Source: Eledone cirrhosa
Taxonomy: Eukaryota
Direction: 5' to 3'
DNA: 64,000 nucleotides
Assembly (NCBI GenBank): GCA_964016885.1
Contig: OZ024742.1
Location: 130,572,001-130,636,000, forward strand
The translations under genes and the position numbers were made by a program. Position 1 is the first letter of the stretch; each line of letters opens with the position of its first letter. Below the pieces are notes generated by a model. It saw nothing but the letters and a program-made list of their open reading frames with translations, did not search any database and was not told the origin of the DNA. Shown here in pieces: positions 6,110 to 52,852 of this stretch.

Positions 6110-9060
6110 AGTTGTGTGCCAGTCACGCTGGTTAGCTTTTGTCATTTTACTTATAAAAAACAAAAATTATTGTTTTAAAAAATATACCACTGTATAGATT
6201 GACCCTCTGACTAAATTGTCAGTGGGTGGGTCATTGAAATTTTGATAAAAATTTATAACAAATTGTTTTAAGCATGAATGATAAAACTGAAGCGCTTCTC
6301 GCCATAAGTGGAAATGGGAGCGTTGAAATGAATGTCACTATGGCAACAGGAAGTAGTGACCGAGAAAAATCACACCAAAACAAAAGTATGGAAACACATA
6401 CGGCACAAAAAAATATTGAACAAGAAAAAAACACAACTTCACAAATGAACTCCACAACCACAAATCAAGCAACTGAGAACAACAAAAACAACAACAACAA
6501 CGACAACAACGACAACAACAACAACAGCAACCATAAAAAATCTTTTGCCACAATAAGCAAAGGAACTTTTACAAATATTGATATTTCCAATGCGAAGGAA
6601 ATGATCAATGAAGGAAAAAATATATTACCTTCGAGAAAAAAGGGAGATTTAAAATAACCTCAATATAATATCAAAGATTAGCGAAAAGGATAATATTTAT
6701 GCAGAACTGATGAGAAATCTGCAGATACTCCACCCTGATTACACCTTCAGATTTATGCCTGTGATTATTGGGGCACTGGGATATGTTAGTAACTGCCTCA
6801 ATACAAATCTTGAGAAGCTAGGCTTCACAGGAACAGAAAGAACACGACTAGTTATTACAAGTAAAACTTACAAGTACAATCCATTAATGGAACAGTAAAA
6901 ATATGTAAAACATTCCAAAGATTTTGCATCTAATAACTGCATATACACATATACAGATGCAAAGCATATACACATGCACACATACAACTCAAAACATACA
7001 CATCCACACATAAAGTCAAAGCCGACACTATGCGAAGGACTGTGATTTTTCGCACGATTTTGAACAAACAAAAAAACCGGCTTTCCTTACTCAAGGCGAA
7101 ATTGAAATCGGCAATGAAAGAGGCAATGCCGAAAACACAATACATACAAAGGGCTAAACTGTATGGAAGCATTTCGGTGCTCTTCAAAAACGAGGCCCTT
7201 GCCAAAAAATACTCAGTGACCCCGGTCACCTCTGCCACACACACCTTTTTCCCTACATACATGGGAAAAAGAACACAAAGAATAAACATCACCAATATAC
7301 CACCCAACATTAACATCTGGTGGATTCTGGCAGGTTTCTTGGAGGAAGATGAAGACACAAAACTGTCGATACAAAAATCCACAAAAAACACCTGGAACGG
7401 CACAAGTTTTGAAATTTTGGTCCAAATGAAACCGGACAGAATTTCCAAGATACCAGAAAGGGAGCACATCGCATTTAAAGGCCCCCTGTCCCCTCTTACG
7501 AACAAACACCACCACCCTCAAAAAAGTACTTTTACCAACAACAACTCCAAAACCACAACAACAACAACAACAATACACAAAACAAGCAAACACACAAAAA
7601 CAAACAACTGTTCAACCACAAACAACAGAAAAAACACAATCAATTCCCCTGAAAAACACAGTCCAACCCCATCCCACTCCATCCAACACTACCACAATCA
7701 CACACACAAACACACCATCACCACACAACATACCCCTCCCACACGCCCTTGATGACGATTCATCACCAGACGAGGCTACTTCTCCATCCCCAAGTGAACA
7801 TGAAAGAGAGCCTCGGAAATAAAACAAAACAAAAAAAAGAGACACCACAAAGCTACAAAAACAACAATCACCAACACAAACACACAACCACTAACACAAA
7901 TAACAACACAAACATTGCCACAATCACCCCCCCCCCCTTACCAGCAAAACAAACACCAACACCACCCCAAACACAAATGCCCACCATAAAAAGAAAACTA
8001 CAAAATGAACAACAAACAAAAACAACACAACAAAAAAACAAACAACAATACACATACATTAACACAAACAACAAAAACCTAATGGAGGCCATCTCCCAAG
8101 GCCCCAAAGTATAAACTGAGGGGAAAACTTTTGTAAAAGCAAACTCTCAACCACACCTAAAACTAATAAGGGTTTCGATAGAGACCTATCAGAAATTGAA
8201 AGAAAAGTTTTCACAGGACGTTGGCAACCCCTGCAAAAACCAATAAACCGTGTCCTGTTGAAATGTTTCCCCACCCCACTCAACACCCCCACCAGAACTG
8301 AAATGGAGATTGAACCCGATCTCCAGGAAACGAAAAGTAAGTGCACCTTTTCGTCCTTTTTGCCAACTCTTCTCCACCAACATGGCTGACTTACGAGTTG
8401 GAAGCGTGAATGTGCGTGGCCTAGGGATGCCCTGGAAACAGGGCCAACTTTTAAAGGATCTTAGGTCACACGGTATAGATGTAATAGCCAACACCGAGTC
8501 CAGGATCCACAACAGGCAGCAAGTAACCCCCATCTTCAATGACTTTGAGATCTACGCATCTCTCTGTCAGCCGGGAGGTGGAGGGGGAGTGACTGTCATG
8601 TTTCGGAAAAACCTGGATCTCGAAGTACAGCAAGTACACTTGGACCCGGAGGGTAGACTGGTAGTCCTAGACGTGAACAGTATTGGAGGTGGAGCCTTCA
8701 GACTGGTGGCCGTTTATGCCCCAACCGGGAAATCACAATAGCGGCCAGACTTCTTTAAGCGTCTGGAGTCTTTTCTGGGAACGTCTCGCTCCTTACTTTT
8801 AGTGGGGGACTGGAATGGTATCCTAGATGCACGATGGGACTATGTGGGAGAATGTCCCAGTAGAGGGGGGTGCAACAGCCTTTAATCGGCCAATTCCAAC
8901 TGGCCGATAGGTATCGACTAGATTTCCCGACTGCACCACAGTGGACGTGGGCAAACCGCAGCGGGACATCTAGATCGTATTTAGATAGGTTCTTCATTAG
9001 AGAAAGGGACAAGGAGATGTTAAGCTATCCACGAATGCACATGGTTGCCTATTCAGATCA
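6110..9060 (+). mobile_element. Tx1/L1-like LINE, 5' portion (ORF1 and APE endonuclease), disrupted and 3'-truncated
   Basis: ORF1 pieces 6274-6657 and 7030-7752 are homologous to 28811-30007. ORF2 starts ATG ~8382 with GSVNVRGL, LVAVYAP, VGDWN and WTW..YLDR motifs. Confidence 0.88.
6659..7012 (+). mobile_element. Internal R4/Dong-like fragment captured inside Tx1 ORF1
   Basis: Near-identical to ~22865-23208 (ELMRNLQILHPDY...CKTFQ plus part of the 3' UTR). Confidence 0.9.
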
Positions 9061-11404: not shown

Positions 11405-11524
11405 TATATGCATGAGGACTTATTCCGACCAAACCGACAGAATATATCAATCAGGGAAGACGCATTTCACATGGTTAGTGCAAAAATATATTGAGTCATT
11501 CTGTCAAGGAACATACATACATAC

Positions 11525-11900
11525 ATGTAGGAGAACCCCTACCGATGCGCTGAACGAGTGTGACTTTTTAGTCCAGCCAGCGACTTGAAAACTCTGGTAC
11601 AAACACTACACTTGTGACAATTATTAACACATAGTAGATAAGCTGGGCCCATTGTACCATGTGACGACAAGTGCAGAGAGATCTCCAGATATAAAGCAAT
11701 GCCTGTGCCGTGAAACTTTTATAGTGAGCAAAGGCACTGCACAAAAGCGAGTCCCACTCTCTTAACCAAGATGATATTTACCAAAAAGAAGAACAAGTCA
11801 ACATCATTGGATACCATCAGGGTTGCAGGTGTTATATCAGGGTTTTCCTTCTCCTAGACAAAATTTCTGCCTTGACAAAGGCTAAGGGGTCATCTCTCCC
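11525..11900 (-). mobile_element. Bipartite non-autonomous RTE derivative in (TACA)n
   Basis: Reverse complement of the 15318-15640 and 35035-35322 sequence. Confidence 0.88.
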
Positions 11901-13762
<1,862 letters not shown>

Positions 13763-14386
13763 TTCTGGTTTTATAATTTCACAACGTTTTACCAATAGTG
13801 AGAGAGTCGGTTTCTAACATAGACACAAGACTTTCTCATTGGAATTTACACAACACCAACTAGGTTGATTATGTATGTATGCCTGCATGTGTAGATATGG
13901 ATGTTATTGTATGTGTGGATGTATATGCTTTGCATCTGTATATGTGTATATGCAGTTATTAAATGCAAAATCTTTGGAATGTTTTACATATTTTTACTGT
14001 TCCATTAATGGATTGTACTTGTAATTTCCTAACTAGTTGTGTTCTTTCTGTTCCTGTGAAGCCTAGCTTCTCAAGATTTGTATTGAGGCAGTTACTAACA
14101 TACCCCAGTGCCTCAACAATCACAGGCATAAATCTGAAGGTGTAATCAGGGTGGAGTATCTGCAGATTTCTCATCAGTTCTGCATAAATATTCTCCTTTT
14201 CGCTAATCTTTGATATTATATTGGCATCTGCTGGGCAGCTAATTTCCACTACTGTGCATGTTTTCTTCTCTCTGTCCCATATCATAATATCTGGTCTGTT
14301 ATGCCTGCATTTTATTGGGGTTTTTACTGGAACATTCCACCAGTACTCTTTCATATTATGTACATGGATGTAATCCACATTGATGT
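13763..14386 (-). mobile_element. R4/Dong-like LINE, 5'-truncated copy (RLE domain and 3' UTR)
   Basis: Encodes KEYWWNVPVKT..RPDIMIWD..VVEISCP, near-identical to 22700-23358, and sits in TATG/TGTG repeats. Confidence 0.93.
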
Positions 14387-14749: not shown

Positions 14750-15236
14750 TTATCTCTTCCTCTTAATTTCGAGTATATTTTTTTGACCGGCCACCTTCCT
14801 GGTGGCAAGGTTGTAAAAGAAAAGTAATTGTCATCCCTTGAATCGCAAGAATGTTTTACAAGTTTGGAAGGTGCCAGCTATCGCAGCCATTTGTAGACTA
14901 TGAATGAGGGAGCTGCGCTCTTTGTCCGCAAATCCAAGTTCAGTCATACTTTGGTCCAAGCAGGTTGGTATATAACCCGTAGCTCCAATAATGATGGCTA
15001 TGAAGCTAAAGGTGTATCTTGGATACTGGATTTGTAAACTCCTCATCAATGGTCCGTCGATGTCCTCCTCCTGTATTTTTCTGACAACGTTTACATCAAG
15101 AGGGCAGCTGATCTCCACAACAGAACACGTTTTCAATGTGTGGTCCCAAACAACAATATCAGGCCGGTTGTGCTTTAATTTGGTGGCAGTTTTTATTTTC
15201 AGGTTCCACCAGTATTCCTTAGTGCCATCTGTCTCA
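14750..15236 (-). mobile_element. Second, divergent R4/Dong-like family, 5'-truncated
   Basis: Encodes KEYWWNLKIKT..HNRPDIVVWD..SVVEISCPLDVNV..CKTFLRF with a different 3' UTR; flanked by (TATG)n on both sides. Confidence 0.88.
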
Positions 15237-15317: not shown

Positions 15318-15681
15318 GAAGGAAAACTCTGATATAACACCTGCAACTCTGATGGTATCCAATGATGTTGACTTGTTCTTCTTTTTGGTAAATATCATCT
15401 TGGTTAAGCGAGTGGGACTGGCTTTGTGCAGTGCCTTTGCTCACTATAAAAGCTTCACGGCACAGGCATTGCTTTATATCTGGAGATCTCTCTGCACTTG
15501 TCGTCACATGGTACCGTGGGCCCAGCACTATGTGTCAATATTTGTCACAAGTGTAGTGTTTGTACCAGAGTTTTCAAGTCGCTGGCTGGACTAAAAGTCA
15601 CACTCGTTCAGCGCATTGGTAGGAGTTCTCCTACATGGATATAAAGTAGTGGCCGTACTCGAAAACGAGTTGGCAGCCACC
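15318..15681 (+). mobile_element. Bipartite non-autonomous RTE derivative with intact 3' end
   Basis: RTE-like 5' UTR piece fused to a frameshifted C2H2-like remnant (CSVCTRVFKSLAGLK..). Ends in the hairpin CTCG-AAAA-CGAG followed by (TATG)n. Confidence 0.85.
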
Positions 15682-17175
15682 TTGTATGCATGTATGTATG
15701 TATGTATGTATGTATGTATGTATGTATGTATGTATGTATGTATGTTATGTATGTATGTATGTATGCATGCGTGCATGTATGTATGTATGTATGTATGTAC
15801 GTATGTATCTATCTATCTATATACGACCCTATATTTGAAATGAAGAAATATAACATCAGTAAATGTTAAAGTAACAAACATAGTTATATCAAAACAGCAG
15901 TGAAATGGCTGACAGAATATAATAAATCGTCAATTTGTTTAATTCCTCCTGCTGTCTCTTCCGTATACTTATTTCTGATGCTGAGCCAGGTCAGTGTACT
16001 TTCTTATACGCTAAATGTTTCCATCCAGCTGTCAGGAACAGTAGGTAAAATGTAGTATAGACCAATCTCCAGCTAAATCTAGTTTGGTCTAGTAATATTC
16101 AGTGTCTCATCTGAAATTCTAAAATTCTAAAGTATGTCTCGAACCCGGAGTCTCATCATGCCGGTGCTTATCCCAGACAGAATGCCAACTATTGTTGGTA
16201 CTAATTTTCAGCTGAGTATACTAGTGCAACGTGAAGTGAAGTGTTTTGCCCAAGAACTCAATACACAACCCAGTCTAGAAATCGAACCGACAACATTATG
16301 ATCGTAAGTACAACACCCTTACCACTCGGTCGTTATTTTACAACCACGTTGTTGTCCTATTTCAGTCACTATACCATCTTTCCCGGGTGCTTTGCAAGTG
16401 TTTATTTGTCTCACTGTAGTCTGAATCTCTTCCAGTGTGTGAGGATCAACAAGCTTGTTAATCACAAGAGTTTGATCCACGGCCTCATTAACGTCAAGAT
16501 TAACGTTAAAGTGTGCGCGCTAGCTTGTCTTGATTTAATCATGTTTACACAACACTTCGTTTCAATTCTTTGACCACAGTGGGGAAAAGACTGGTAGGTG
16601 GTTCATGTACAGTACGCAGTTAATGTTACAATGATATAGCACCTCGTTTTATGCTAAGGCTTGTTTGTGATGCGCTTTATCGTGCAACCAAGAATTTTTT
16701 GCTGCTCGGAGTTCGAGTTGCACTCACGCCTTACATTCTTTGAAAGCCGAGATTTTTCTGCGTCTTCCTTGGAGCAAGATAAAAACTTGTCCAGACATAT
16801 TTTCTTTTTCCTTAGCAGGCTTTCCACTAGTGGTTCATTTGCAGTAAAACAGTCCTGATGTTTTTTCTATGCAGAACCCAAAGTCATGGCTGCTGCTACA
16901 TAAAGCTGTTTGCTGAAAGACAGTCATGCACCAACACCATTGGTGACTTCAATTTGCTGAACTGCGTCATGGAAATCCTTTAATTTTTCTGGGTAAACCA
17001 ATTGTGAGGTGTTTACGTCACTGCAGCCTTACACCACCGTGTTTCATCTTTCGAACACAAGCACGGAGAGTTGCCCTTAGGAGATGGTGGCTCGTCAATA
17101 CTCTGGCCCTCTCACACAATGGATAGATCTGACATCTCACAAATTGTCTCGTCTTACAATCACGTTGTAAATAAT

Positions 17176-17362
17176 TGTTTCTACTTTTGGAACAAGGCCA
17201 GCAATTACCCAGTACATTACTGGTACTTTATTTTATCGATCCCGTAAGGATGATAGGCAAAGTTAACCTCGGCGGGATTTGAACTCAGACTGTAAAGGGA
17301 CGTAACTATGCCGGAAAGCATGGCATCTGACCCGGCACCGATACTGCCAATTCACCACCCTT
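17176..17362 (-). mobile_element. Full-length tRNA-derived SINE with 16-bp TSD
   Basis: Family consensus on the reverse strand; flanked by TCAC[G/A]TTGTAAATAAT. Confidence 0.9.
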
Positions 17363-18031: not shown

Positions 18032-18218
18032 GGCGGGGGATTGGCAATATCGGTAGAGGGTCGGACGCCATGCTTTGCCGCATAGAGTTACGGCCTTTTC
18101 CATTCTGAGTTCAAATACCGCCGAGGTTAACTTTGCCTTTCATCTTTACGGGGTCGATGAAATAAAGTACCAGTAATGTCCTGGGTAATTACTGGCCTTG
18201 TGCCAAAAGTAGAAACAA
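18032..18218 (+). mobile_element. Full-length tRNA-derived SINE with 18-bp TSD
   Basis: GGCGGGGGATTGGCAATATCGG...GTTCAAAT...AGAAACA flanked by ATTATTTGTCATATTAGT. Further copies lie at ~35441, 43093, 43545, 44872, 45415(-), 47689, 48075(-), 53103, 53808, 59159, 59375, 60871 and 61064. Confidence 0.92.
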
Positions 18219-18904
18219 TTATTTGTCATATTAGTCATTTCATTTTCATTACAAGTATTTTTCCCGCCTAAGTGAACAACCGCCAGCCACGGGTTGCCGG
18301 TCAGCTTAGATATTGGTAAACTTTCTTTAGACCACCTTTTCTAGGTCCCTCTTGGCTAGGAGGTGAGCAGTGCTCATCCTGGAAAGGTCTGTTCAGTCAC
18401 TTCCGATGCAGCCAAGTCGTATCATAGCCTATGTTCGGAGAAAAAACGATCAATATCCCAAGTCACCTACACGTGGGTTTGCTACTACGTACTTACAGTT
18501 TTTAGGCCTGTTCACATCATAGTTCTCCCTCTTGCCGCAGGTCTTTTGAATGAAACGTTGTGCGTTATCCGTTCAGAGTCTAAGAAGTCCCTGTGCGTAA
18601 AATTGATTATAGTGGACGTGGCTTGCACAACACCAGGCCCGCCTTTGAGACAAAACCAAAGCTGATTTCCCAACATAGGTTCAGACGAACAGCAACTGAT
18701 TCAATTTCAGGTTTTCTACCAGGGTTTCTCTCCCTTTGACGGGTTTTATTTTTCCTCCCGCAGGATGTCTAAAATCATCACCTCCTTACCAAGTTAGCTT
18801 GATGGTGCTGCCAGTTTAGACACCGACGACTCAACTATGCAACAGATTGTATTGGGTTACATGTTACCAGCACATTGCTAAGAGTATCGCAATCGCTTGT
18901 CAGA

Positions 18905-19143: not shown

Positions 19144-19242
19144 CACACACATACATACATACATACATACATACATACATACATACATACATACATACAT
19201 ACATACATACATACATACATACATACATACATACATACATAC

Positions 19243-22200
19243 ACAGTCAACGCGATCAGTCGCATATTTTGGCGTGGGAGACTATTTATTAAATTTAAGA
19301 TGGATACTATCTCCGACAGTAATGCCACAACTACAGACATGTTGAATAACTGGTTATTCTTCTAACTATATCTTCTGAAGACACCTTTTATTAGAATTTG
19401 TAGAGATATCCGACTAAATACATAATTCTTTTTACAAGGATTTGCTACAAACAGCATGGCTGAACACAACATCAACAACAAAATTAAGGAAGTACCGAAG
19501 ACAAATAACAAGGAAGGTAAACAAACTTTATTCAGTTGTAGTTACAGAAGAAACCGAAATTATAAATCGCATTTCTCTTGGAGTTGCGAACTTAATAATG
19601 ATTTATTTAATTCTTATAAAATGGCAAAAAACAATCCCTCCATTGGCTATATGAACAGAATGAAGCCACACTGGGACGAAATGCACTCAGAGCTAAATTA
19701 TTTCACAGCGAAACAATTACGCCAACAAGCAACGTTTGTTGAACGTAAAAATAAGATAAATATTATTAATTGTAAGTCCCCCACAACAAACATGTTATCA
19801 ACAACACGTGCTACAGGTCGCCATGCTACTAGACTTCCTAGCAGCTAGGTCGAACAGCGCCTTGAAACAACTATGCCTGTAAGAAACTTGACACCACGTG
19901 TACCATCTAAGTCTACCTCGAATGCTGGGGAAAACAATATCGATAATAATAATAATCGAAGAAATAATAATAATAATCGAAGAAATTTGACACCACGTGT
20001 ACCATCCGAGTCTACCTCAACTATTGTGGAAAATACTATCGATAATGATAATAACCAAAAGTATAAACAATTGAAACTTTCCCCCAACGAAATCTTCCAG
20101 AGAGAAATTAATTCATGTATAAATATCTCTCTTGCTGAAAGTATTAAAACGACAATGTTTAATAAAAAACCAAATAATGAAATATTACGTGTTATTGACG
20201 AAATAGGGGATGCATATTTACGACGGATAAAAACCCCAACATTTTGGCAAATCAACGCCTGTTTATATGCCTTAGCAACGACAGTGAAGCATTATCTTGG
20301 TGATAGCAGAGATATTAACAAGAACAAAACACCACCAAAAATACCATCATATATAACTAAAATAGAAAAAAAGATTGCTGACCTACGAAAAAACATAGGA
20401 TATGTGACAATGCTCCTTACATGCAAACAAACACAAAAAAACCTCACTCCTCACCAACAAAGAGTAAACAATAAAATAGAGACGATGTTTGGTAACAGTA
20501 GAACCAGAACTCTCCAATATAAGCTGATCACCCTCAAACAAGAATTGAGAGCTGTTAGCGAAAAACGCTGATACCTGAAGAAAGTAGATGAGAGAAAAGT
20601 GCTTAATAAAAGATTCAGACGAAACCAAACATCAGTCTATAGAGATATGAAGGGCAAAATAATAAGTGTCACTGAGGCCCATTCCCAAAAAGACATAGAT
20701 TTCTTTTGGAGCAAAATATAGGGTGAAAAGAAGAATTTCAACCAAGATGCAGGGTGGCTAAGAGAAATCCGAAAGAACTATTGCTCCTACACTACAACAA
20801 AAACATACGAAATAAGTAAGGGTACTCTTGAGACTGTGATAGGAAAACTCCAAGATAAGAAAACACCAGGAAGAGACATGATTGTCGGCTACTGGTACAA
20901 AAAACTGATATTCTATCGGAGGTATCTTACTGACCTCTACCAACAAGTTCTTAAGGGAGATACACTTATACCAGAATGGTTGAAATTAGCACAAACATTA
21001 CTGGTCCCCAAGAACAAAAACACCCACTTGGCAAAAAACTACCGACTCATTTCATGCCAGAACCTGATGTATAAGGTGTATACAGCCTGCCTGAACCTAT
21101 TCCTCCAAGATCACTGTGAAAATAATAACATCATCACAGATGAACAAGCAGCTGGAAAGAAAGGGGTTTGGGGATGTGTTGAACAACTCCTAATAAACAA
21201 AACTGCGATGTCGGAGGTGCGACAACTTAGGAGGAATATGGCTACAGTCTGGCTGGACTACAGGAAAGCTTTCGATTCTATTCCCCACTCTTGGATGATA
21301 GAGGCCCTCCAACTTGCTAAAGTCCCAGACATTATTGTCAGAGCCATAGAGTGGCTCTCTTCTTCTTGGGCTACTATCCTAAGGTTAAAGACAGAGAGGG
21401 AGGACTCTATTTTCACTGATAAAATAAAATATTGCAGGGGTATATTTCAGGGGGACAGTATCTCTGTGATATTATTCATCTTGTCCTTTTTGCTCAAGAA
21501 ATGAGAGGGATACATCATTGGCTCACAGGAGGACAGAAATACGAACCTAACCCATAATTTCTTTGTGGACGATCTGAAAATCTATGCCAAGAACATGGAT
21601 GGGATGAAGAAAAATTTTGACCTGGTTACAACGTTCTCAAAGGATATAGGAATGGAGTTAGGCTAAGATAATTGCTCATACATGACTGTAAAGCGGGGAA
21701 AAACAACAACCCAATCTAGCAACATTGTCATCAATGGCCTAACTGTTTCACCGATATCTGACGAGGACTGCTACAGATACCTGGGGATAGATGAGAACAT
21801 ATCCTATAATGGTATCTGTAATAAAGAACGCGTAACCAGGGTATACTACACCCGAGTAAGAAAGATCTGGTCATCGGAACTCTCTGCGCAAAACAAAACA
21901 GTAGCTCACAATGTGTTTGCTGTGCCTGTTCTAACACCAACGTTTGGAATACTCAATTGGACGATAGACGAAATCCGAGCAGTTGATGTTGGAACTCGAA
22001 AAATACTAAACAACACAGGAAACTTCCACATCAACAGTGACATAGACCGTCTTTACTTGAAACGTAAACAGGGAGGCAGAGGCCTAACATCAGTCCAGAC
22101 AACATTTGAATGTCGCATCATATCTCTCCGACAACATCTACGAACCTCGAAGCGTAGGAGCCCGTTTCTCGAGCAAGTCTATCTGCATGAAACAGATAAG

Positions 22201-23358
22201 ATCATGAGAATTGGCAAGGCACTCCTCGAGAGATATTCCCTGTGTGATAATCAAAAACTCACACCCAGGGATGTCGCTCAGCAGTATCGCAGTGAATCCA
22301 TGGATGAAAAACTGCATGCTTATCAAAAAAAATCATGCATGGATATGTTGCCAGGAAGCTCCAGAGTGAGAGTTATATAGATAAGGAAAGTAGTCTATCT
22401 TGGACCAACAACCGCTATATTGGCTCCCACTTTGAAGGATACGCTTTTGCAATCCAAGAACAGGAGATTAACACGAAATACCTGATTCACAAAAGAGATA
22501 GGGATGCAGGCAAAACACCTAGATGTGATAACATGTGCAGACTCTGCAGAACTAACATCGAGGATATCACCCATGTCATCAGCAGCTGTCCAAAGATGTC
22601 ATCGCGGTACTATCTACCTATGAGGCATGATGTAGTGGCCAAAACACTGTACAATGCAGTTCGTATAAAAGATAGCCCCGATAATAAACACATTAAAAGC
22701 TACATCAATGTGGAATACATCCATGTACATAATATGAAAGAGTACTGGTGGAATGTTCCAGTAAAAACCCCAATAAAATGCAGGCATAACAGACCAGATA
22801 TTATGATATGGGACAGAGAGAAGAAAACATGCACAGTAGTGGAAATTAGCTGCCCAGCAGATGTCAATATAATATCAAAGATTAGTGAAAAGGAGAATAT
22901 TTATGCAGAACTGATGAGAAATCTGCAGATACTCCACCCTGATTACGCCTTCAGATTTATGCCTATGATTATTGGGACACTGGGGTATGTTAGTAACTGC
23001 CTCAATACAAATCTTGAGAAGCTAGGCTTCACAGGAACAGAAAGAACACAACTAGTTAGGAAATTACAAGTACAATCCATTAATGGAACAGTAAAAGTAT
23101 GTAAAACATTCCAGAAAGTTTTCATCTAATAACTGCATATACACATGTACAAAGGCAAAACATATACACATGCACACATACAACTTAAAACATACACATC
23201 CACACATACAATAACATCCATATCTACACATGCATGCGTACATACATAATCTACCTAGTTGGTGTTGTGTAAATTCCAATGAGAGAGTCTTGTGTCTATG
23301 CTAGAAACCGACTCTCTCACTATTGGTAAAACTTTGTGAAATTATAAAACCAGAAGAA
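19243..23358 (+). mobile_element. Near full-length R4/Dong-clade non-LTR retrotransposon (RT, CCHC, restriction-like endonuclease), pseudogenised
   Basis: N-terminal W..ELN.DL..GYM.RM..W..QLRQQ. RT motifs YRLISCQNLMYK, WLDYRKAFDS, RGIFQGDS and FVDDLK. CRLC..HVISSC, RHD and RPD..VVEISCP..K...Y. Several stops and frameshifts; (TACA)n on both sides. Confidence 0.95.
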
Positions 23359-24116
23359 CATACATTCATACACACATACATACATACATACATACATACA
23401 TACATACATACATACATACACACATACACACATATATACATACATACATACATACATACATACATACATACATACATACAGTATTAATAGTTGAAATTTG
23501 TAAATAACTGTTACTCTACAAGACTATAGTATTTCTACTAGCTCTACCAACAACACCTCACCCCATCCTCTCATACCACCCACAGTATCACTACCTCACC
23601 TCTTACCGCCATCAGCCAATACTGTAGAAACGTAGTTCGTTTTGGAAACCTCTTCGTAACGTCTTTAGTATTCGCAGCTTGTCTTCGTTCATGATTTAGC
23701 ATTGAGTAATTAATTTCATGTTTGTCACACACTCTCTGTTATTATCTCTTCATCCGTCTGTCCGTCCACCCGTCTGCCAGTCCATCTGTCTGGCTGTATG
23801 TCTGTAAGCCTGTTTGTCTGCTCCCCCCCCCTCATACTTTACTCCCTCGTCATCCCTGCCTGTCTGTATCAATCTTACCCATATCCTTGCATCTACCGGC
23901 CTCCCTTTCATCTACACACTGTCTGTCTATATGCCCCTTCCCCATATCCATAGCCAACTCTTTCTTCTCTGCCATTATTATTCGATGCAATTTCTAGCAA
24001 AACTAGTCGCGCGCGAAAAGACACCAGCCAAGCCGAAGCGTCGTTCTGTAATTAAGAACGTCACTATGTTTAAGACCCCATCGACTCTCCCTTCGCACCC
24101 CTGTTGCGTAGGATGC

Positions 24117-28609: not shown

Positions 28610-31600
28610 GATGCGTGAAACATCGCCGGTAAGATTTTTTCTAAATTTATATACGAAAAACAGAACAAATTGTTTGAAAAAACATTATTTTGTAGATTAA
28701 CCCCCAAGCTGAATTGTCAGCTGGGTGGCAATCCCATTTTTCGCCCCTTTAGGGCGAAATTTTTATTTTAAAAATTGTTTTAAAATATAAAATTTTACAA
28801 ACTATTTAACTTGAACAACACAAGAACTCTGGAGAACGTCAATAGAGAAAAGAGAGAGAAAGAGGCAGATATTAACGTTATATCTGTTTCTGCTACTATG
28901 GACGTCGTCATAGATACGACTGTCAACAAAGAGGAAAACATGTTACCACTCGAAAACTGTACAATTTCTACCGTCGAAGCGGAGAAAAATAACACTAACT
29001 CACATGAAAACACAGAAATTAAACCTAATAACATACATACACATGAAAAAGACATCAACAACTCCACAGATACATCTACACATAAAGTTTTACCTCGTCA
29101 AGGAACTGAGATTTCCAAGACCGAGGCTAACAACGACAACAACAACAACAACAACAACAACACCACACAAAAAAAGAAAATGTCTTTCGCTGAAACAGTG
29201 AACAAAAAACAAGATTTTATAAATCTTGATATCTCCAATGTAAGAGATATGCTCCAGCAAGGGAGAAAATTTGTAACTTTCGAAGAAAAAGGTGGGTTTA
29301 GAATTAATTCACCCCTTGAAATAAAGGAAGACACAATTCGCAGATCAGTCACCTTTAAGACTGTGTCAAATTCCACAAGAAAGCCGACATTTGTTAGCCA
29401 AGCCGATATAGAAGCTACTTTCAAGGAAATTCTAGCAAATATCGATTTTCTCCAGCGAGGAAAACAGTACGGAAGTGTTTCCGCCCAAAAACATTCTGTG
29501 ACACCAATGGTGTCAAAAGCATTCACCTTTTTCCCTACATACATGGGAAAAAGGACACAAAAAATAAAAATAAAAAATATACCACCAAACATTAACATCT
29601 GGTGGATCTTGGCTGGCTTCGTAGAGCCAGAAACTGATATGATTCTTTCGATACGAAAATCTATTCGACAAAGGTGGGCGGGTACTGATTTGGAGATTCT
29701 GTTGCAAATGAAGCCGGAGAGAATCTCCAAAATACCCGAAAGAGTCGTCATCGATGATAACAACAAAATAAACATTTCGGTAGAAGGACGAAAATTTCAT
29801 TGCTTTCGCTGTGGTAGCACAGCACACCTAAAAGCCTCTTGTCCACAAACGCACAACAACAACATCATTAAAAAAACACCATTACCAACACCAACACCAA
29901 AACAACGACCACAACCACAAGTACACGACAGACGAAACGAGCAGCCACACCAAAACAAACAGACACTCAACCAACAACAACAGAAAAAACAGAGACAACA
30001 CCCCTGAAGAACACAGCCCTACCCCATCCCACTCCATCAAACACTACGACAAACACACACACCGAAACACCACCACCACACAACATACACCTACCCCACA
30101 CACCTGAAGATGATTATTCATCGACGGATGAAGCTGCTTCTCCTTCTTTAAGAGAAGAAGAGGAGAGCCGCGGAAATCTAAAAAACAAAAAAAGAGACAC
30201 CACAAAACCACCAACACCAACACACAACCACAGACACAAACAACAACACAAACAACACCATAGTAAAACATCCCCCTATCAGCAAAACCAACACCAACAC
30301 CACCCCAAACACAAGCACCCACCTTAAAAAGAAAACTCCCGGACGAACAACAAACTAAAACAACACAACAAAAACGCAAACAACAATACGCATACATCAA
30401 CACAAAGAACAAGAATTTGATGGCGGTCATCTCCCAAAACCCCAAGGTGGAGGGCAAAACTTTCGTCAAGGCTGAATCGTCTCCACACCTTAAACTTATA
30501 AGGGTTTCTATGGAAACCTATAATGACCTAAAAAATAAATTTTCACAGGGCGTGGGCAACCCCTGCCAGAAACCCATCAACCGCGTCCTGTTAAAATGTT
30601 TCCCCACCCAAATGGAGATTGAACAACCCGATCGCCAGGAAACGAAAAGGTTAGTGCACTTTTCGTCCTTTTTCTCGAACTATTCTTCACCAACATGGCT
30701 AGTTTACGAGTTGGAAGCGTGAATGTGCCTTGGGATGCCCTGGAAACAGGGCCAACTTTTAAACGACCTTAGGTCACACGGTATGGATATGATAGCCATC
30801 ACCGAGTCCAGGATCCACAACAGGCAGCAACTAACCCCCATCTTCGACGACTTTGAGATCTACGCATCTCTCTGTAAGCCAGGAGGTGGGAGTCGAGTGG
30901 CTGTCATGTTTCGGAAGGACCTGGACGTCGAAGTACAGCAAGTACACTTGGACCCGGAGGGTAGACTGGTAGTCCTAGACGTGAACAGTATTGGAGGTGG
31001 AGCCTTCAGACTGGTGGCCGTTTATGCCCCGATCGGGCAATCGCAATCACGGCCAGACTTCTTTAAGCGTCTAGAGTCTTTTCTGGGAACGTCTCGCTCC
31101 TTACTTTCAGTGGGGGACTGGAATAGTATCCTAGATGCACGATGGAACTATGTGGTAGCATGTCCCAGTAGAGCGGGGTGCAACAGCCTCAAAACTTTAA
31201 TCGGCCAATTCCAACTGTCCGATAGGTACCGACTGGATTTCCCGACTGCACCACAGTGGACGTGGGCAAACCGCAGCGGGACATCTAGATTGTATTTAGA
31301 GAAAAACAGAATAGAAAGAGAACTAGTAGCCAAGGTAGAGGAGGCACTTAGAAGTGGCAACGCGGGTAGAGTGTTAGCGTCGAGAACGGCACTGGACCAG
31401 TTCTTCGATGCGAAACACGAAGGCTACGTGGTCAGAAGTAAAACACGTGCTCTTGGAAACGAAGGAGCGAAAGCTGTCAGCTGGGCCTGAGTGGCGGAGG
31501 CAAGAAGTGGCAACAAGTCCACGAATTGGTCTTTGAAAGACCAAAACGGACGCGTGCTACTTGACCCCAAGCAAATGTGTGCGGCCATTCAGCAGCACCT

Positions 31601-34034
31601 TGCACGACTGTTTGAGCATAACGACGGTGAGCCGAACGGGGCAATGGACTTTAGTTCATACCTCAACGGTCTGCCGCGTCTCTCGAACACTGACGCCGAG
31701 TTCTGCGATAGACCGATCACGGACACTGAGATACGGGACATTCTGGGCCGCTGCGGGAAACGCAAGTCACCCGGCCTAGATGGTCTACCCTATGAGTTTT
31801 ACATAGGCATGTCGGACTTGTTCTCTGGCGTCCTCGAAGCCGTCTACTGCAATGGCAGCAGAACGGGAGAATTCCCAGTTCTGCAGACAAGGGCGTAGTA
31901 ACGCTGATCAGGAAAGACGAGAACAAGGGGGACCAAATTAACAACTTCAGGCCCATAACTCTGCTCAACACAGAGTTAAAGATTTTGGCCAAGGTGCTAG
32001 CGACGAGGTTGGCGCTTGTCGAGAACCTGGTAGGAAAAGCGCAAACGTGTGCAATCCTGACCAGGTCCATACACGACAACCTCCACCGCATGCGATACAT
32101 CATAGAGAGGGTGGGTAGTAAACCCGGCTTCGGTGGGGCTCTGATCAATTTGGATCAGTCTAAGGCATTCGATAGGGTCGACCATCGATACTTGGAAGCG
32201 GTTCTCAAGGTGGCCGGTTTCGGTCCCGTGTTCAGAGGCTGGATCGAGGCGATGCACACCAGCATCTGCTCGAGGGTCAAGGTGAACGGCTACCTATCGG
32301 AGTCGTTCGCAATCACGCGTTCCATTCAACAGGGGTGTTCTCTCTCCTCCATGCTGTATGTATTGAATCTCGAGCCACTACTGCGGAAATTGGAGCTATT
32401 GCAGGGCATCCCTCTAGAACCGGGACTGCGCAAAGCGGCGTGGGCTTATGCTGACGACGTAACGGTAATGGTGTCGAGCACCTCGGAAATCGGGGTGATG
32501 GGCAACTTACTGAAAGAATACGAAACGCTGACGGGAGCAAAACTAAACCCGGACAAGTCTGTCGGTTTGCAACTCGGTACGCGGAGAGGCAAACCAATGA
32601 CGTCCGACAGTGTCGTTGGACGCTGGACGGACCGGTGAAATTGCTCGGGGTCTGGTTCGGTCCAGACCTCCAGGTGGAGAAAAACTGGAACGAGGTCACG
32701 GCCAAGGTGTTTGCACTCACCCAGAAGTGGGCAGAGGGCAAACTGTTCTTGAAAGGTCGAGCGGAGGTGGCGAACACTTTCATAGCGTCCGTCATCTACT
32801 ACCGCTTGACTGTCATGCCTTGTCCCCGAGAACACCTCACCAAGATGGAACGCATGCTCTTCCAGTTTCTGTGGAAGAAGCAGGCTCCGCTGGTGAGGAG
32901 ATCCGTCTGCTGTCAGCACCCTTCCAACGGAGGGCTGGGAATGCCGTGGGTGATGATGCGCAACCATGCGCTGAGGCTGCGGCATCTCCAGGTATTCCTC
33001 ACCGACCCCCAACCGGTGTGGGCACCGTTTGTGAGACAGGCTTTCCCACAGCTCGTCTCGCTGACGGAGCTGCAGTCCTGGGTGAAGAAAAGACCGAAAA
33101 CGATGTGCGCTTGGCACATTGAATGCGCTCAGGCGCTCACAGTCCTCTGGCAAGCGGGCGCAGCAATCAGTGGAGACTCCACTTCGACATTCTATAGAGG
33201 GATTGTACGTTACAAGGGCGACGACGTGCTCGGAGAGACTCTGGGCGTCGAAGACGATGAGCTCACCAGTCTGTTTGGTAGGACTTTCCGCCCGGGACCT
33301 ATGGACAACTTCCAGAGGTCCCTGGCCTGGCAGTGCTACCGAGGAGCTCTACTGGTTCGTGACAAGTTCCACAGGCACGGACGCCCCGGCAGGGATCCTT
33401 TCAAGAAGATGTGTCCAAGATGCGCGCAGGACATTGAAACAGTCCTGCACGCAATTGTACACTGCCCGGGCGTAACCGACCTGTGGAACTATGCAGAACA
33501 ACTGCTGTCGCGTATGGGACAAATCCAGTTGACTGCCGAGTCCATAGTAAGGATCAAACCACCAGCCTCTTTCAAAAACGAAAGAGAGGCGGTTTTCCTT
33601 TGTAGGGTGGCTATGGTGAAAGAAGTTATATGGTGGACGAGATTGAGAGGACTGAGGACGGATGCCTTTCTCTCCGGACAACAATTGATTCCCTTCTTTA
33701 AGTATCACTTTAGAAGGAGAATCAGAGTGGAGAGAGAGGCACCCAATGTAAATTTACTGAAAGGTGAGTGAATGGGCCTTCTCTGTTTATAAGCCTGTAG
33801 GTTGAAGAGGAGAGCTAAAGGAAGAAAAGAACACTTGCACAACACGCTCCTGGAGTTGAGGGTTGTTCTATCGACGGCGTATTAAACAACCCATTTGTAG
33901 CGCCTCTCCCCTATTGGGGATTTCGATTGTTGTAATTGTTTGTTTTTATATTTTTTACACGACTGTATGTAAAATCTCCGGCATGTCTTTGTATTGTCCC
34001 CTTTTCTTGTGCGCCCTTGTGGCAAATAAAGAAA
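28610..34034 (+). mobile_element. Near full-length Tx1/L1-clade LINE, pseudogenised
   Basis: ORF1 28811-~30680 carries a CCHC knuckle CFRCGSTAHLKASC. ORF2 from ATG ~30695 has APE motifs, SPGLDG, FRPITLLN, LDQSKAFDRV, QGC.LS, YADD and CPRC..HAIVHC. An internal deletion lies near 31300, and the element ends AATAAAGAAA followed by (TATC)n. Confidence 0.95.
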
Positions 34035-34591: not shown

Positions 34592-34626
34592 TTCTTCTGG
34601 TTTTATAATTTCACACAGTTTTACCA

Positions 34627-34629
<3 letters not shown>
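34592..34629 (-). mobile_element. 38-bp extreme 3' end of the R4/Dong-like LINE inside pure (TATG)n
   Basis: Reverse complement of 23321-23358. Confidence 0.9.
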
Positions 34630-34706: not shown

Positions 34707-34800
34707 GACTAAAAAGTCACACTCGTTCAGCGCATCGGTAGGGGTTCTTCTACATGGATATAAAGTAGTGGCCGTACTCGAAAACGAGTTGGCAGCCACC
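34707..34800 (+). mobile_element. 3'-terminal 94 bp of the RTE derivative inside (TATG)n
   Basis: Matches 15589-15681. Confidence 0.9.
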
Positions 34801-34877: not shown

Positions 34878-35322
34878 CAACCTGTCCCATGGTCGGGTCG
34901 TTGGCGACTAAACTGGCAACCCCACCAAGGTTTCTTGGTGAGGAGGGTGACTTTGGACAGCCTGCAGGACTAAAAACAAAACCTGTCAAAGGGCAAAGGA
35001 GCTCTTAAGAGTTAATGGCCATCCAAAATCACCGGGAGAGATGACCCCTTAGCCTTTGTCAAGGCAGAATTCTAGGAGAAGGAAAACTCTGATATAACAC
35101 CTGCAACCCTGATGGTATCCAATGATGTTGACTTGTTTTTCTTTTTGGTAAATATCATCTTGGTTAAGAGAGTGGGACTGGCTTTGTGCAGTGCCTTTGC
35201 TCACTATAAAAGCTTCACGGCACAGGCATTGCTTTATATCTGGAGATCTCTCTGCACTTGTCGTCACATGGTACCATGGGCCCAGCACTATGTGTCAATA
35301 ATTGTCACAAGTGTAGTGTTTG
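34878..35322 (+). mobile_element. RTE derivative with the longest 5' part, 3'-truncated
   Basis: 34878-34995 is homologous to the RTE 5' UTR at 18730-18855 (-); the remainder matches 15318-15564. Confidence 0.88.
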
Positions 35323-35622
35323 TATGTATGTGTTTGTGTATGTATGTATGTGTTTGTGTATGTATGTATGTATGTGTGTATGTATGTATGTGTGTATGTG
35401 TGTATGTATTTGTGTATGTATGTATATTTTTCTTGTTTCATTGGCAGTATCGGTAGAGGGTCTGACGCCATGCTTTTCAGCAAATAGTTACGGCCCTTTA
35501 TGGTCTGAGTTCAAATCCCGCCGAGGTTAACTTTGCCTTTCATCCTTACGGGGTCGATAAAATAAAGTACCAGTAATACACTGGGATAATTGCTGGCCTT
35601 GTGCCAAAAGTAGAAACAATTC

Positions 35623-35729
35623 TTTTATAAATTTTTACCAATAGAGAAAAAGTTGGTTTCTATCATAGACACAAGACTCTTTCATTGGAATTTAGACATC
35701 TACTAGGTAAGGTAAATATGTCTGCATGC

Positions 35730-35796
<67 letters not shown>

Positions 35797-36083
35797 TGCA
35801 GCTATGGATGTTATTGTATGTGTGGGTCTGCATGCTTTGAGTTATATGTGTACACGTGCATATGTTTTGTATCCATACATGTGTATATGTTGTTATTACA
35901 TGCAGAACTTTTGGAATTCTTTACATATTTTTACTGTTTCATTAATGGATTGTACTTGTAACTTCCTAACTAGTCGAGTTCTTCTGGTTGTGTGAAGCCC
36001 AGCTTCTTAAGATTTGTACTGAGGCAGTTAGTAACATATCACAGAATCCCAATAATCACAGGTATAAATCTGAAGGTATAGTC
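35623..36083 (-). mobile_element. Older R4/Dong-like 3' fragment
   Basis: Diverged homology to ~22940-23345. Confidence 0.85.
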
Positions 36084-36895
36084 ACAGAATCTTAACAGAC
36101 CATTTGATTAGTGAAAACATTGTGCAAAACTAGTGCCCAAACACTTGTCTGTGGGGCAGAAAGCAAACCGGTAAGAAATTTGTCTCAATTTGATTGAAAG
36201 ACTCGAAATTTAGCCAAATTTCTTGGATAAAGTAATAACTGGAGATGAATCGTGGGTGTTCGGGTACATCCAAAGACAAAACTATAATGTGAGAATTGGC
36301 ACACGAAAAATTCTCCTCGTCCGAAGAAAGCACCCATGAGGAGAAACAGGGTGAAAACGATGATTATCATTTTGTTCAACAGCTGTGGTATTGTTCAAAA
36401 AGAAGTTTTACCTCCATCACAGACAGTTAATCACACCTTCTACAAAGATGTCTTGAAATGACTTCGAACATGTGTCCAGCGAGTCCGAATGGACATTGCA
36501 GGAGATTGGTTACTGCACCACTTTAACACACCTGCAAACACAGCTCTTTCAATTAGAGAATTTCTGGCGAAAAAAAAAAGATTCCGATTCATCCACATCC
36601 TCCCTTCACTTCAGATCTAGTTCAATGTGATTTTTTCCTCTTCCCCAAGCTGAAATCGAAGTTGAACTGTCATCATTTTGAAACCGTGGAAAACAGTAAA
36701 AATTGTAAGCGACGAGCTAAGGTCACCCACAAAAAATAACGCCCAGTACTGTTACAATCAATGGGAACAACTTTGGAATCATTGTGCGACTTCCCAAGGG
36801 TCGTGTTTTGAAGGAGATAGCTTGTAATTTTATGTTCGTCTAATCTAAATTTAAATAAAACATTAGTACACTTACTTTGGGAACAAAGCTCGTGT
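36084..36895 (+). mobile_element. Mariner transposase remnant, 3' two-thirds
   Basis: Decayed motifs CAKLVPKHL, DKVITGDESWVFGY, HPPFTSDL..CDFFLFPKLK (YSPDLAPxD-like) and G..FEGD. Confidence 0.9.
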
Positions 36896-42213: not shown

Positions 42214-43333
42214 TGAATGTGTATATGCTGCCCGTTTTTGTGTTTGTGCGTCTATGCCTGTCTGCCCGTGTATATTATATACTCTATATGTGAACGGCGT
42301 TTGTGGATTCTACTGCTTAATAAATTAAAAATTGGTTCATGGCAGTCGATAATCTGAAGTTTTATGGGTCATCAGCCAGTAATGTGACACGTTCCACTGA
42401 TCTGTCCTGAGCAACCTGCTCTCTGTAATATTTACTACGATCACAACGTTAGATGCAAGGAAGGAAGGAAGGAAGGAAGGAAGGAGATGGAAAAATACGG
42501 ATCGCCTTCACCACCACAATCTCTACTACTGCCAGCAATACTGTCACCACCACCGCCGCCGCCACCACCACCACCACCACCACCACGACCTACCAGCAGC
42601 ACCAGCAGCACCGTCAACCAAATTCACTACCACCAGCAGTACCAGCAGCATCCCCACCACCTTCACTACCAGCAGCACTAGCGCAACCACCACCAACCAC
42701 CTTCACCGCCGGCCACCACCACCTCCGTCGCCGGCACCACCGCCACCACCTTCACCAGCACCACTATTACTTCTACCCCCCCTCCCCTCCCTCCGCAACA
42801 CCACCTCCTCCCCCACCATCAGCATCCTACTCCAATAACACCTCCGACTACCACCGTCGTATCTTTGCCACCATCACCATACCCAGCAATGAGTAAGCAT
42901 CCATATTCGCGCTAGACCTGCTAGAAATAACAGTCAAATTCTCATTAAACCACATTCCAATATCTTAAAATTGTAAGGACATATCACATAATGTAGTTTT
43001 ATTAAACTGTCTGAAACGAAGAAGGGATGGTCATAGTTGGAACGCTTTAATCACAGAACTGTTTCACCAGAGCAAACCTACACCCCACCATTTTGGCAGT
43101 ATCGGTAGAGAGTTGGACGCCATGCTTTCTAGCATAGTTACGTCCCTTTACAGTCTGAGTTCAAATCCCGCCGAGGTTAACTTTGCCTTTCATCCTTACA
43201 GGGTCGATAAAATAAAGTACCAGTAACGTACTGGTTAATTGCTGGCCTTGTGCCTAAAGTAGAAACAATTATTACCATTACAAACAGCACTAACAGCCAA
43301 CCAATATAGGAGCCTCTAGAAACAGAAACCAAA

Positions 43334-43538: not shown

Positions 43539-43807
43539 AACAAGTGGATTGGCAGTATAGGTAGAGGGTCGGACGCCATGCTTTGCAGCAAAGAGTTACG
43601 ACCCTTTATGGTCTGAGTTCAAATCCCGCTGAGGTTAACTTTGCCTTTCATCCTTACGGGGTCGATAAAATAAAGTACCAGTAATACACCGGGGTAATTG
43701 CTGGCCTTGTGCCAAAAGTAGAAACAATTATTATCACTATTGACCAACACAAACTATACAGGAGTCTTGGGTACATTTTGCTGTAGGAAAGAAACCCGAG
43801 AAGATTA

Positions 43808-44646: not shown

Positions 44647-45885
44647 TGCGCGGTCACTCGACCTACTAGAAATATGTTTTTTAAATCATAACCTACTGAA
44701 CTGAGAAACGTTAGGGCACACCGGATAAACTAACCTGGGGTTAAACAACAGTAGTATTTCCACATATCTTATCCTACTGTCTTAAAAAATGAAGGAAACA
44801 TTGAAAATATATAAAAAGTGGGATGTTCTCTACAGGAACGGCGTTGGTCTTAGGTTTGCACAATCATCATTGGTGAATTGGCAGTATCGGTAGAGCGTCG
44901 GACGCCATGCTTTGACGCATAGAGTTACGTCCTTTGCTATTCTGAATTCAAATCCCGCCGAGGTTAACTTTGACTTTCATCCTTACGGGGTCGATAAAAT
45001 AAAGTACCAGTAATGCACTGGAGTAATTGCTGGCCTTGTGCCAAAAGTAGAAACAATTATTATCATCATCATCATCATCATTATCACCATTAGAAGAAGA
45101 AGAAAAAGAAGAAGAAGAAGAAGAAGAAGAAGGATGGAGGCAATAATAATAATATCTAACATCTTTACCAATGCAAACAGCTCTTGCACCACCACCACAT
45201 CCAGCACCCCTCCTCTACTACTACTACTACTACTATACACTCATCATTATCACTATCTCCAACATCTATGGACCTTTAACTCCTGATGTAGTCCCAGGTG
45301 CATTGTCGCGACACAGCATGTATTTATACCTGGCGTCTGTGTGAGAGAGAAGGAAAGAGAGGGAGAGAGAGAGAGAGATAGATAGAGAGAGAGAGAGAAA
45401 TAGCAGAAAAATCGATCCCAGTACTGGTATTTTATTTATCGATCTCGAAAGAATGAAAATCAAAGTTGACTTTGGAAGGATTCGAACTCAAAGATCAGTG
45501 ATACAGAAACAAAGGATTCAATCTAACTTCCTCACCACTCTGCTAGTTCGTCGCTAAACCATCGCCAACACCAATATAAACAGTATACGTGCGTCCCACC
45601 GCAAATGACCATAATAAGAGTCGATCACTATAAATGATAATTCAGAAAATCAGGTAAAATACTCCTGACCGAAAAAAATGAGGCAGAGGCGTCTGCAAGG
45701 AGCCGAACACTTATTTTTCAGACATCGGAGGAATATATTAACCATTACGCCACAGAGCCGATGGCCACCAATTTCCCCTTTTTAGACGATTTTAATCAAG
45801 TGTAAATAAATCTATTAGGAAGCATTGGGAAAATTTGAAATTTGAAATGTGTGCTTCCCAACGCAAATAATCATAATAATAGTCA

Positions 45886-52000: not shown

Positions 52001-52165
52001 GAGGAGCTCTACCAGTTCGAGACAAGCTCTACAGACACGGGCGCCCGGGTAGGGACCCTTCGAAAAAGATCTGTCCGAGATGCGTGCGCGACGAGGAAAC
52101 CGTCGCACACGCATTTGTACACTGCCCGGGCGTTACCGACCTGTGGGGCTATGTAGAACGACTAT
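49057..52165 (+). mobile_element. Mosaic Tx1-like LINE with scrambled pieces and an internal RT duplication
   Basis: After (TATC)n come an RT snippet, a 3' end, an ORF1-like snippet and then ORF2. The KVLAKRLALV...EPGLRK block is present twice (~50097-50570 and ~50944-51390). Confidence 0.9.
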
Positions 52166-52852
52166 TTTCCAAAACAGTCGAGGTAGACTCGGATGGTACA
52201 CGTGGTCTCAAATTTATTCGATTATTATTATTATCGATAGTGTTTTTCCCAGCATTCGAGGTAGACTTAGATGGTACAGGTGGTGTCAAGTTTCTTACAG
52301 GCATAGTTGTTTCAAGGCGCTGTTCGACCTGGCTGCTAGGAAGTCTAGTATCATGGCGACCTGTAGCACGTGTTGTTGATAACATCTTTGTTGTGGGGGA
52401 CTTACAATTAATAATATTTATCTTATTTTTATGTTCAACAAACGTCGCTCGTTGGTGTAACTGTTTCGCTGTGAAATAATTTAGCTCTGGGTGCATTTCG
52501 TCCCAGTGTAGCTTCATTCTATTCATATAGCCAATGGAGGGATTGTTTTTTGCCATTTTATAAGAATTAAATAAATCATCATTAAGTTCGCAACTCCAAG
52601 AGAAATGCGATTTATAATTTCGGTTTCTTCTGTAGCTACAACTGAATAAAGTTTGTTTACCTTCCTTGTTATTTGTCTTCGGTACATCCTTAATTTTGTT
52701 GTTGTGTTGTGTTCAGCCATACTGTTTGTAGCAAATCCTTGTAAAATGAATTATGTATTTAGTCGGATATCTCTACGAATTCTAATAAAAGGTGTCTTCA
52801 GAAGGGATAGTTAGAAGAATAACCAGTTATTCAACCTGACTGTAGTTGTGGC
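52166..52852 (-). mobile_element. R4/Dong-like 5' fragment fused to the Tx1 mosaic
   Basis: Reverse complement of ~19324-20040 (MAKNNPSIGYMNRM..). Confidence 0.92.

Follow-up and report, generated by a model that had tools for sequence, protein, structure and literature searches.

Dong-like retrotransposons with a restriction-like endonuclease in (CATA)n microsatellites of Eledone cirrhosa

Described relatives and the locus in the window

Dong elements target (TAA)n and Waldo elements target ACAY repeats, as described in PMC3812793. The account in PMC7998251 gives R4/Dong elements an N-terminal Myb domain without zinc fingers and a TAA target in most insects, molluscs and cnidarians. These two sources describe Bombyx Dong, DongAg, DongBg and ostracod Dong1/2 as microsatellite-targeting elements with the repeat on both sides and one open reading frame (ORF) for a Myb-like N-terminus, a reverse transcriptase (RT) and a restriction-like endonuclease (RLE), with no N-terminal zinc finger (PMC7998251, PMC3812793). 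Other RLE groups target other microsatellites, with (TG)n used by Togen and microsatellites by some HERO and Togen families according to PMC4640811, so that a change of target is expected behaviour.

Dong-R4 elements are reported as abundant and recently active in O. vulgaris, with five families and 1,129 young insertions (PMC13282606), for O. bimaculoides a Dong consensus with a full ORF has been described (PMC9115989), and abundant octopus Dong-R4 LINEs are also mentioned in PMC8967140; the Dong-R4 passages of these three accounts name no insertion target. The families described here may well be among these octopus LINEs, as judged from their descriptions.

We analysed a 64,000-nucleotide stretch of the Eledone cirrhosa genome (contig OZ024742.1; hereafter, the window), which contains a family-1 element of about 4.1 kb running from CAGTCAACG (starting at 19244) to ...CCAGAAGAA (ending at 23358) between two (CATA)n arrays (Table 1). 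The near-complete, repeat-bounded copy of the original prediction was thus confirmed, with its 3' end correctly placed and its start shifted by one nucleotide, because 19243 is the last A of the upstream array. Five in-frame stops and two deletions, of 15 nt and 1 nt, disrupt the ORF of this copy. Also as predicted, the window holds a 38-bp stub in pure repeat at 34592 and, at 14750-15236 on the minus strand, a divergent second family with the same flanks and polarity, about 69% alike to family-1 DNA over 120 bp. Further pieces lacking a 3' end lie at 6660-7012 (+), 35623-36084 (-) and 52163-52852 (-).

Table 1. Repeat arrays, element copies and element parts in the window (positions counted from its first nucleotide)
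Feature	Position	Strand	Remarks
Upstream (CATA)n array, 25 units	19145..19243	+	
Family-1 element, full length	19244..23358	+	2.2% off the majority of 21 near-full copies
Family-1 5' UTR	19244..19455	+	Start CAGTC common to genome-wide copies
Family-1 single ORF	19456..23129	+	1,229 aa in the family majority
N-terminal arm and predicted three-helix Myb/SANT-like domain	19546..19760 (bounds approximate)	+	No CCHH zinc finger; fold checked on the family-2 domain
Reverse transcriptase core	20860..21790 (bounds approximate)	+	FFVDD at 21559; Pfam RVT_1 E 4e-13
CX2CX8HX4C knuckle	22536..22592	+	
Restriction-like endonuclease (RLE)	22623..23129	+	Motifs RH, PD, E, K..Y present
Family-1 3' UTR	23130..23358	+	Ends GAAGAA, no poly(A)
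Downstream (CATA)n array	23359..23480	+	Junction phase = CATA
Family-2 copy, 5'-truncated (RLE and 3' UTR)	14750..15236	-	(CATA)n both sides; encodes RLE C-terminus
Family-1 copy, 5'-truncated, repeat-flanked	13763..14386	-	In the same array as family-2 copy 14750..15236, head-to-tail behind it
Long degenerate (CATA)n array, downstream of copy 13763..14386	12670..13762	-	
Family-1 3' stub of 38 bp in pure (CATA)n	34592..34629	-	97% identical to the element 3' end; (CATA)n both sides

We consider it highly probable that these are two families of single-ORF RLE retrotransposons that reside in (CATA)n in one phase and one direction, likely through repeat recognition and target-primed reverse transcription (TPRT), within a Dong-like branch of the R4 clade whose target probably shifted from TAA to four-letter repeats. 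They resemble Dong in the single ORF, the lack of an N-terminal zinc finger, the microsatellite on both sides and, by prediction, the Myb-like N-terminus, and the TAA-flanked relatives found here share 37-41% RT identity with them; unlike Dong, their flanks are (CATA)n and not (TAA)n, and they form a long-stemmed subclade with CTTA-flanked elements. The parallel with Waldo drawn in the original prediction stands for the target, since the ACAY repeats of WaldoAg1, WaldoAg2 and WaldoFs1 (R1 clade; PMC3812793) include ACAT and the present flanks are (ACAT)n. Nevertheless, Waldo carries an APE endonuclease whereas the present element lacks APE and carries its RLE at the C-terminus, so that the shared target would be convergent; the nearer comparison is the Dong-like subclade, whose two other flanked members lie in (CTTA)n.

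Sequence and protein anatomy of the two families

The genome (3.0 Gb, in chromosome-scale contigs) was searched with each element end, retaining the best 40 of 297 to 1,603 candidates per query, and 39 family-1 and 40 family-2 regions were fetched. The family-1 majority, from 21 near-full copies diverging by 1.6-3.6%, is 4,130 bp long with one ORF of 1,229 aa, and the family-2 majority, from 23 copies diverging by 0.6-3.4%, is 4,214 bp long with one ORF of 1,169 aa. The two proteins show 45% identity over 1,200 aa and both ORFs have the RT-knuckle-RLE order, so the claim of two divergent families with RLE architecture holds. The ORF repair from genome-wide copies that had been proposed is unnecessary, because one family-2 copy (L230:856-4365, minus strand; P0344) has a natural intact ORF of 1,169 aa. 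Among the family-1 copies fetched no ORF was intact, the longest spanning 578 aa.

The single ORF encodes an RT (Pfam RVT_1), a CCHC knuckle and a C-terminal RLE, with a profile match to R2 that extends through the RLE; the Pfam scan found no APE domain. Among 81 aligned relatives, the endonuclease residues RH, PD, K and Y show at least 90% conservation, and they align with those of R2Tg; the roles of these motifs are described for R2Bm (PMC4838377), and their context in PMC5678591 and PMC5035012. An AlphaFold model (pLDDT 86.8) had its best structural matches in R2 (Foldseek E 2e-34). Of the solved proteins, R2 (R2Bm, R2Tg) thus matches best in structure and in profile, and it shares the layout and the RH / PD / K..Y motifs; the present families differ from it in having neither N-terminal zinc fingers nor a 28S rDNA target, and identity in the structural alignment is 17-19%. 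No solved R4/Dong structure appeared among the structural matches found, and a single-sequence search with the RLE piece of the window copy itself returned no PDB relative.

The N-terminal 77 aa are predicted to form three helices (pLDDT 83), and their best matches are mostly Myb/SANT domains (Zeste, TRF1, Cdc5L), at weak scores (Z 5.0-5.7, none with a Foldseek E below 0.001). A conserved Trp of this domain is common to TAA-type relatives too. No CCHH-type pattern occurs in the first 420 aa of the 81 aligned proteins or in the first 450 aa of family 1.

A poly(A)-tailed LINE inserted at random was ruled out, since copy ends carry no poly(A). Folding z-scores of the UTRs ranged from -1.3 to -3.3 relative to crude doublet shuffles, and Rfam gave no structured RNA or ribozyme match except mir-297 in L247 and L083 (E up to 0.1), which is driven by the microsatellite. 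No RNA data set was listed as containing the element, which speaks neither for nor against expression. Additionally, a third CATA family, kin to family 2, is probably represented by its 3' end at positions 1-82 of L151, where it heads three elements chained in a single array.

Placement among TAA- and CTTA-flanked relatives

We kept 80 loci from a metagenome scan, 33 of them with the C-terminus and more than 60 bases beyond it. Their 3' flanks were (TAA)n in 17 loci, mixed or distant TAA-like sequence in four, (CTTA)n in two, and (CAA)n, (AT)n and poly(A) in one each, with no repeat in the remaining seven. The two (CTTA)n loci, L250 and L251, were the top-ranked full-length matches of the scan (43% and 36%), and L250 has CTTA on both sides, with both junctions falling before the C. 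Ordinary TAA targeting coexists with the CATA-flanked families in the E. cirrhosa genome, where L141 (G000:C4:40000001-40010000, minus) contains two tandem Dong-type elements, each followed by (TAA)n, beside a Tx1/L1-like ORF. Family 2 followed by CATA also appears in contigs of three sequencing runs, each with an organism code of its own (X3, X7, X8); for X5, no loose family-2 end with CATA was found among the rows listed.

In an RT tree of 89 rows, built by a quick search with SH-aLRT support only and containing no named R4/Dong references, both families, L250 and L251 fell into a single clade of 27 rows (support 100, stem 0.61), with the TAA-flanked rows outside it in a base without resolved order. 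As a whole, the RTs grouped with those of TAA-flanked and insect homologues and away from the APE outgroups, again with the base not resolved. A full-length tree of 24 rows, from which L251 was left out for its broken ORF, recovered the same subclade (100/100, stem 0.79 changes per column). On this tree, a sister relationship of the two CATA families was rejected (AU p 2e-6, in a test chosen after the first tree), indicating that CATA either is an old target in the branch or was taken up twice. The subclade with CTTA-flanked elements has its own N-terminal arm, R-x-x-R-[DN]-Y, a candidate target determinant.

The placement in the R4 clade made in the original prediction is supported by the TAA-flanked relatives and by the predicted Myb-like N-terminus without zinc finger; protein searches and a cluster look-up for named R4/Dong proteins returned only unnamed or 'uncharacterized' matches, and the Atlas only unnamed RVT_1 clusters. 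Alternatively, the targeting might be real and the elements might instead fall in a different RLE clade (HERO or NeSL-like) or in an unnamed clade that is sister to R4. The long stem of the subclade in both trees and their lack of named references leave room for this, as does the use of microsatellites by some HERO and Togen families (PMC4640811). We nevertheless regard it as unlikely, because RT identity to TAA-flanked relatives is 35-41%, as compared with weak direct matches to R2, and because the predicted Myb-like N-terminus without zinc finger, shared with those relatives, is the arrangement given for R4/Dong in PMC7998251.

Taking these elements as Dong-like, it is likely that a branch of the Dong group changed its DNA target from TAA to CATA repeats. 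In the literature searched, which lay outside Repbase and supplements, we found no Dong element targeting CATA or CTTA. A broader version, to which we give roughly even chances, is that a long-stemmed, widespread and undescribed Dong-like branch moved from repeats with a period of three bases to repeats of four, C-W-T-A (CATA in this genome and CTTA in two relatives), with the N-terminal arm and the Myb domain as the switch and with arrays shared with opposite-facing RTE-like elements as self-renewing hot spots.

Three TAA-type relatives contain a tRNA-like sequence upstream of the ORF (L252:84-168 and near the starts of L262 and L264), with a tRNA call only in L252; this stretch may represent a Pol III head or else a SINE next to the element.

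CATA flanks across the genome and a model of insertion

Whole-genome exact counts placed exact CATA directly after 4,782 of 5,552 family-1 ends and 3,522 of 4,312 family-2 ends, leaving 14% and 18%, respectively, without it. In the fetched loci, 85/95 family-1 and 68/85 family-2 3' ends were in phase CATA, and an oriented (CATA)n 12-mer, within one mismatch of the repeat, lay right after 74/95 and 66/85 distinct ends. By the same measure, in a background of 200 kb (20 stretches at round-number coordinates), (CATA)n 12-mers occupied 0.28% of positions, (AC)n 0.42% and (AT)n 4.1%, the last being 15 times commoner than (CATA)n. None of the 180 sampled 3' ends showed the reverse polarity and one was followed by (AT)n, while CATA stood upstream of 33/37 full-length 5' ends of family 1 and 24/27 of family 2. 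Across the genome, the family-1 end plus three CATA units occurs 3,394 times and the same end plus three C-not-A-TA units twice; two non-CATA ends hold register with another unit (CCTA, CGTA) and no CATA. The ranking of the searches did not select for CATA flanks, because the queries contained no flank, and chance is excluded as an explanation. The junctions AGAA|CATAC and ATAA|CATAC are as first described, and their phase holds genome-wide and is not random. The target preference is real, strong and genome-wide, and is best regarded as a target variant of Dong-like R4-clade elements, which, with at least 9,800 element ends, help explain the dense (CATA)n arrays of this genome.

Arrays of (CTTA)n are rare here (777 overlapping 20-mers). 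All three that we inspected (L332, L333 and L341) grow out of (CATA)n, one of them directly behind a family-1 end, which suggests that CTTA runs in this genome arise by mutation of CATA units.

Copies truncated at the 5' side separate a target from a tail, because CATA upstream of them cannot come from a 3' tail. With no rows dropped and with truncation points that were internal and unrelated, a strict test found CATA upstream of 26/45 truncated family-1 and 41/52 family-2 copies (67/97; background 0.8%), which fits targeting and not just a tail. The other 30/97 failed the strict test; by eye, among the 19 family-1 misses, eight or nine were full-length copies interrupted by later insertions and five had short CATA runs clipped by the alignment. 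Some misses have true non-repeat 5' flanks (for instance, L004, L023, L082, L117 and L164), and upstream of one family-2 copy the repeat is reversed. Where only one to three units lie downstream (L087, L092, L239, L241), the upstream array is longer and no unique flank is duplicated. We found no empty pre-insertion site; in the one comparison of paralogous flanks, the sequence downstream of L084 proved to be an old repeat, and its 14 paralogues do not extend into the upstream flank.

The element could itself make the repeats, its RNA carrying a (CAUA)n tail and inserting with low specificity, so that the flanking arrays would be tails or duplications. Consistent with this, flanks vary less at the 3' than at the 5' side, some copies have CATA at the 3' side and a non-repeat 5' flank, and a young subfamily of family 2 whose 5' UTR is shorter (L230-L232, L234, L236, L240) repeatedly shows CATATATAA just upstream, suggesting that upstream bases travel with the RNA. 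Against it stand the 67 truncated copies preceded by CATA, the 5' arrays, often far longer than the 3' ones, and the two ends followed by CCTA or CGTA; we thus consider self-made repeats quite improbable.

At its far side, the downstream array met a same-direction copy for 23/92 family-1 and 18/85 family-2 ends, an opposite-direction copy for one, and an RTE-like element in the opposite direction for 22/92 and 17/85. That the RTE element itself is the target was ruled out, since only these arrays end at one. The latter is a non-autonomous element of 607 bp (L170-L199) that we take to be RTE-like from its 5'-UTR and C-terminal CxxC motifs; its copies are 96-100% alike, lie opposite to the Dong-like elements with (AT)n or (ATGT)n on both sides, and in L182 show what looks like a target duplication (about 25 nt). 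As a control, it is looser, with 3' flanks of (AT)n in 16/30 and (ATGT)n in 11/30. Passive enrichment, in which a relaxed endonuclease with RNA-primer pairing, or selection against other insertions, leaves copies in microsatellites, could draw on this loosely repeat-flanked element and on read-through tail pairing, which could supply much of the specificity, but it too is quite improbable, because selection cannot produce a single phase and a single polarity while bypassing (AT)n and (AC)n, which are far commoner, and because the TAA-flanked relatives that share this genome make another choice.

For insertion by targeting, we propose a model by analogy with R2. The Myb-like domain, the N-terminal arm and the endonuclease would read the repeat, and the (TATG)n strand would be nicked, most simply at TATG^TATG, with the 3' end of the nicked strand priming cDNA synthesis at the 3' end of the element. 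If a transcript read a few bases into the downstream CAUA, it would pair with this primer and could thereby set the phase by itself, so the junction is no proof of where the nick lies. Both a nick at a fixed site and a CAUA tail gained by read-through would agree with the constant phase and the lack of poly(A). For R2, PMC13580325 describes the need for a template whose tail can pair with the primer (avian R2). Insertion would leave intact repeat on both sides, and the same array would therefore be open to another insertion.

The TAA- and CATA-flanked families of one genome, their CTTA-flanked relatives elsewhere and one intact ORF form a natural comparison set for the way in which RLE retrotransposons come to use new targets. 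The suggested use as a site-specific tool appears weaker than first claimed, because the target would be a dispersed, unstable microsatellite and not one locus, making these elements less attractive than R2 for gene insertion.

The window contains other repeats as well. Pieces of the 607-bp RTE-like element lie at 15319-15680 (+), 11518-11900 (-), 34708-34800 (+) and 35034-35324 (+). A SINE-like repeat of 180 bp, present in many copies, occupies 17170-17350, 18040-18223, 35440-35624, 43093-43280, 43544-43736, 44873-45065 and 60870-61060; elsewhere, its end lies directly at two family-2 3' junctions (L104, L110), and it also occurs inside several family-1 copies. Two RT-bearing LINE pieces (about 31371-33500 and 49485-52160), 81-83% alike, group with a Tx1/L1-like RT in the tree, and two stretches of 1.5 kb (7460-8985 and 29813-31300) are 81% alike.
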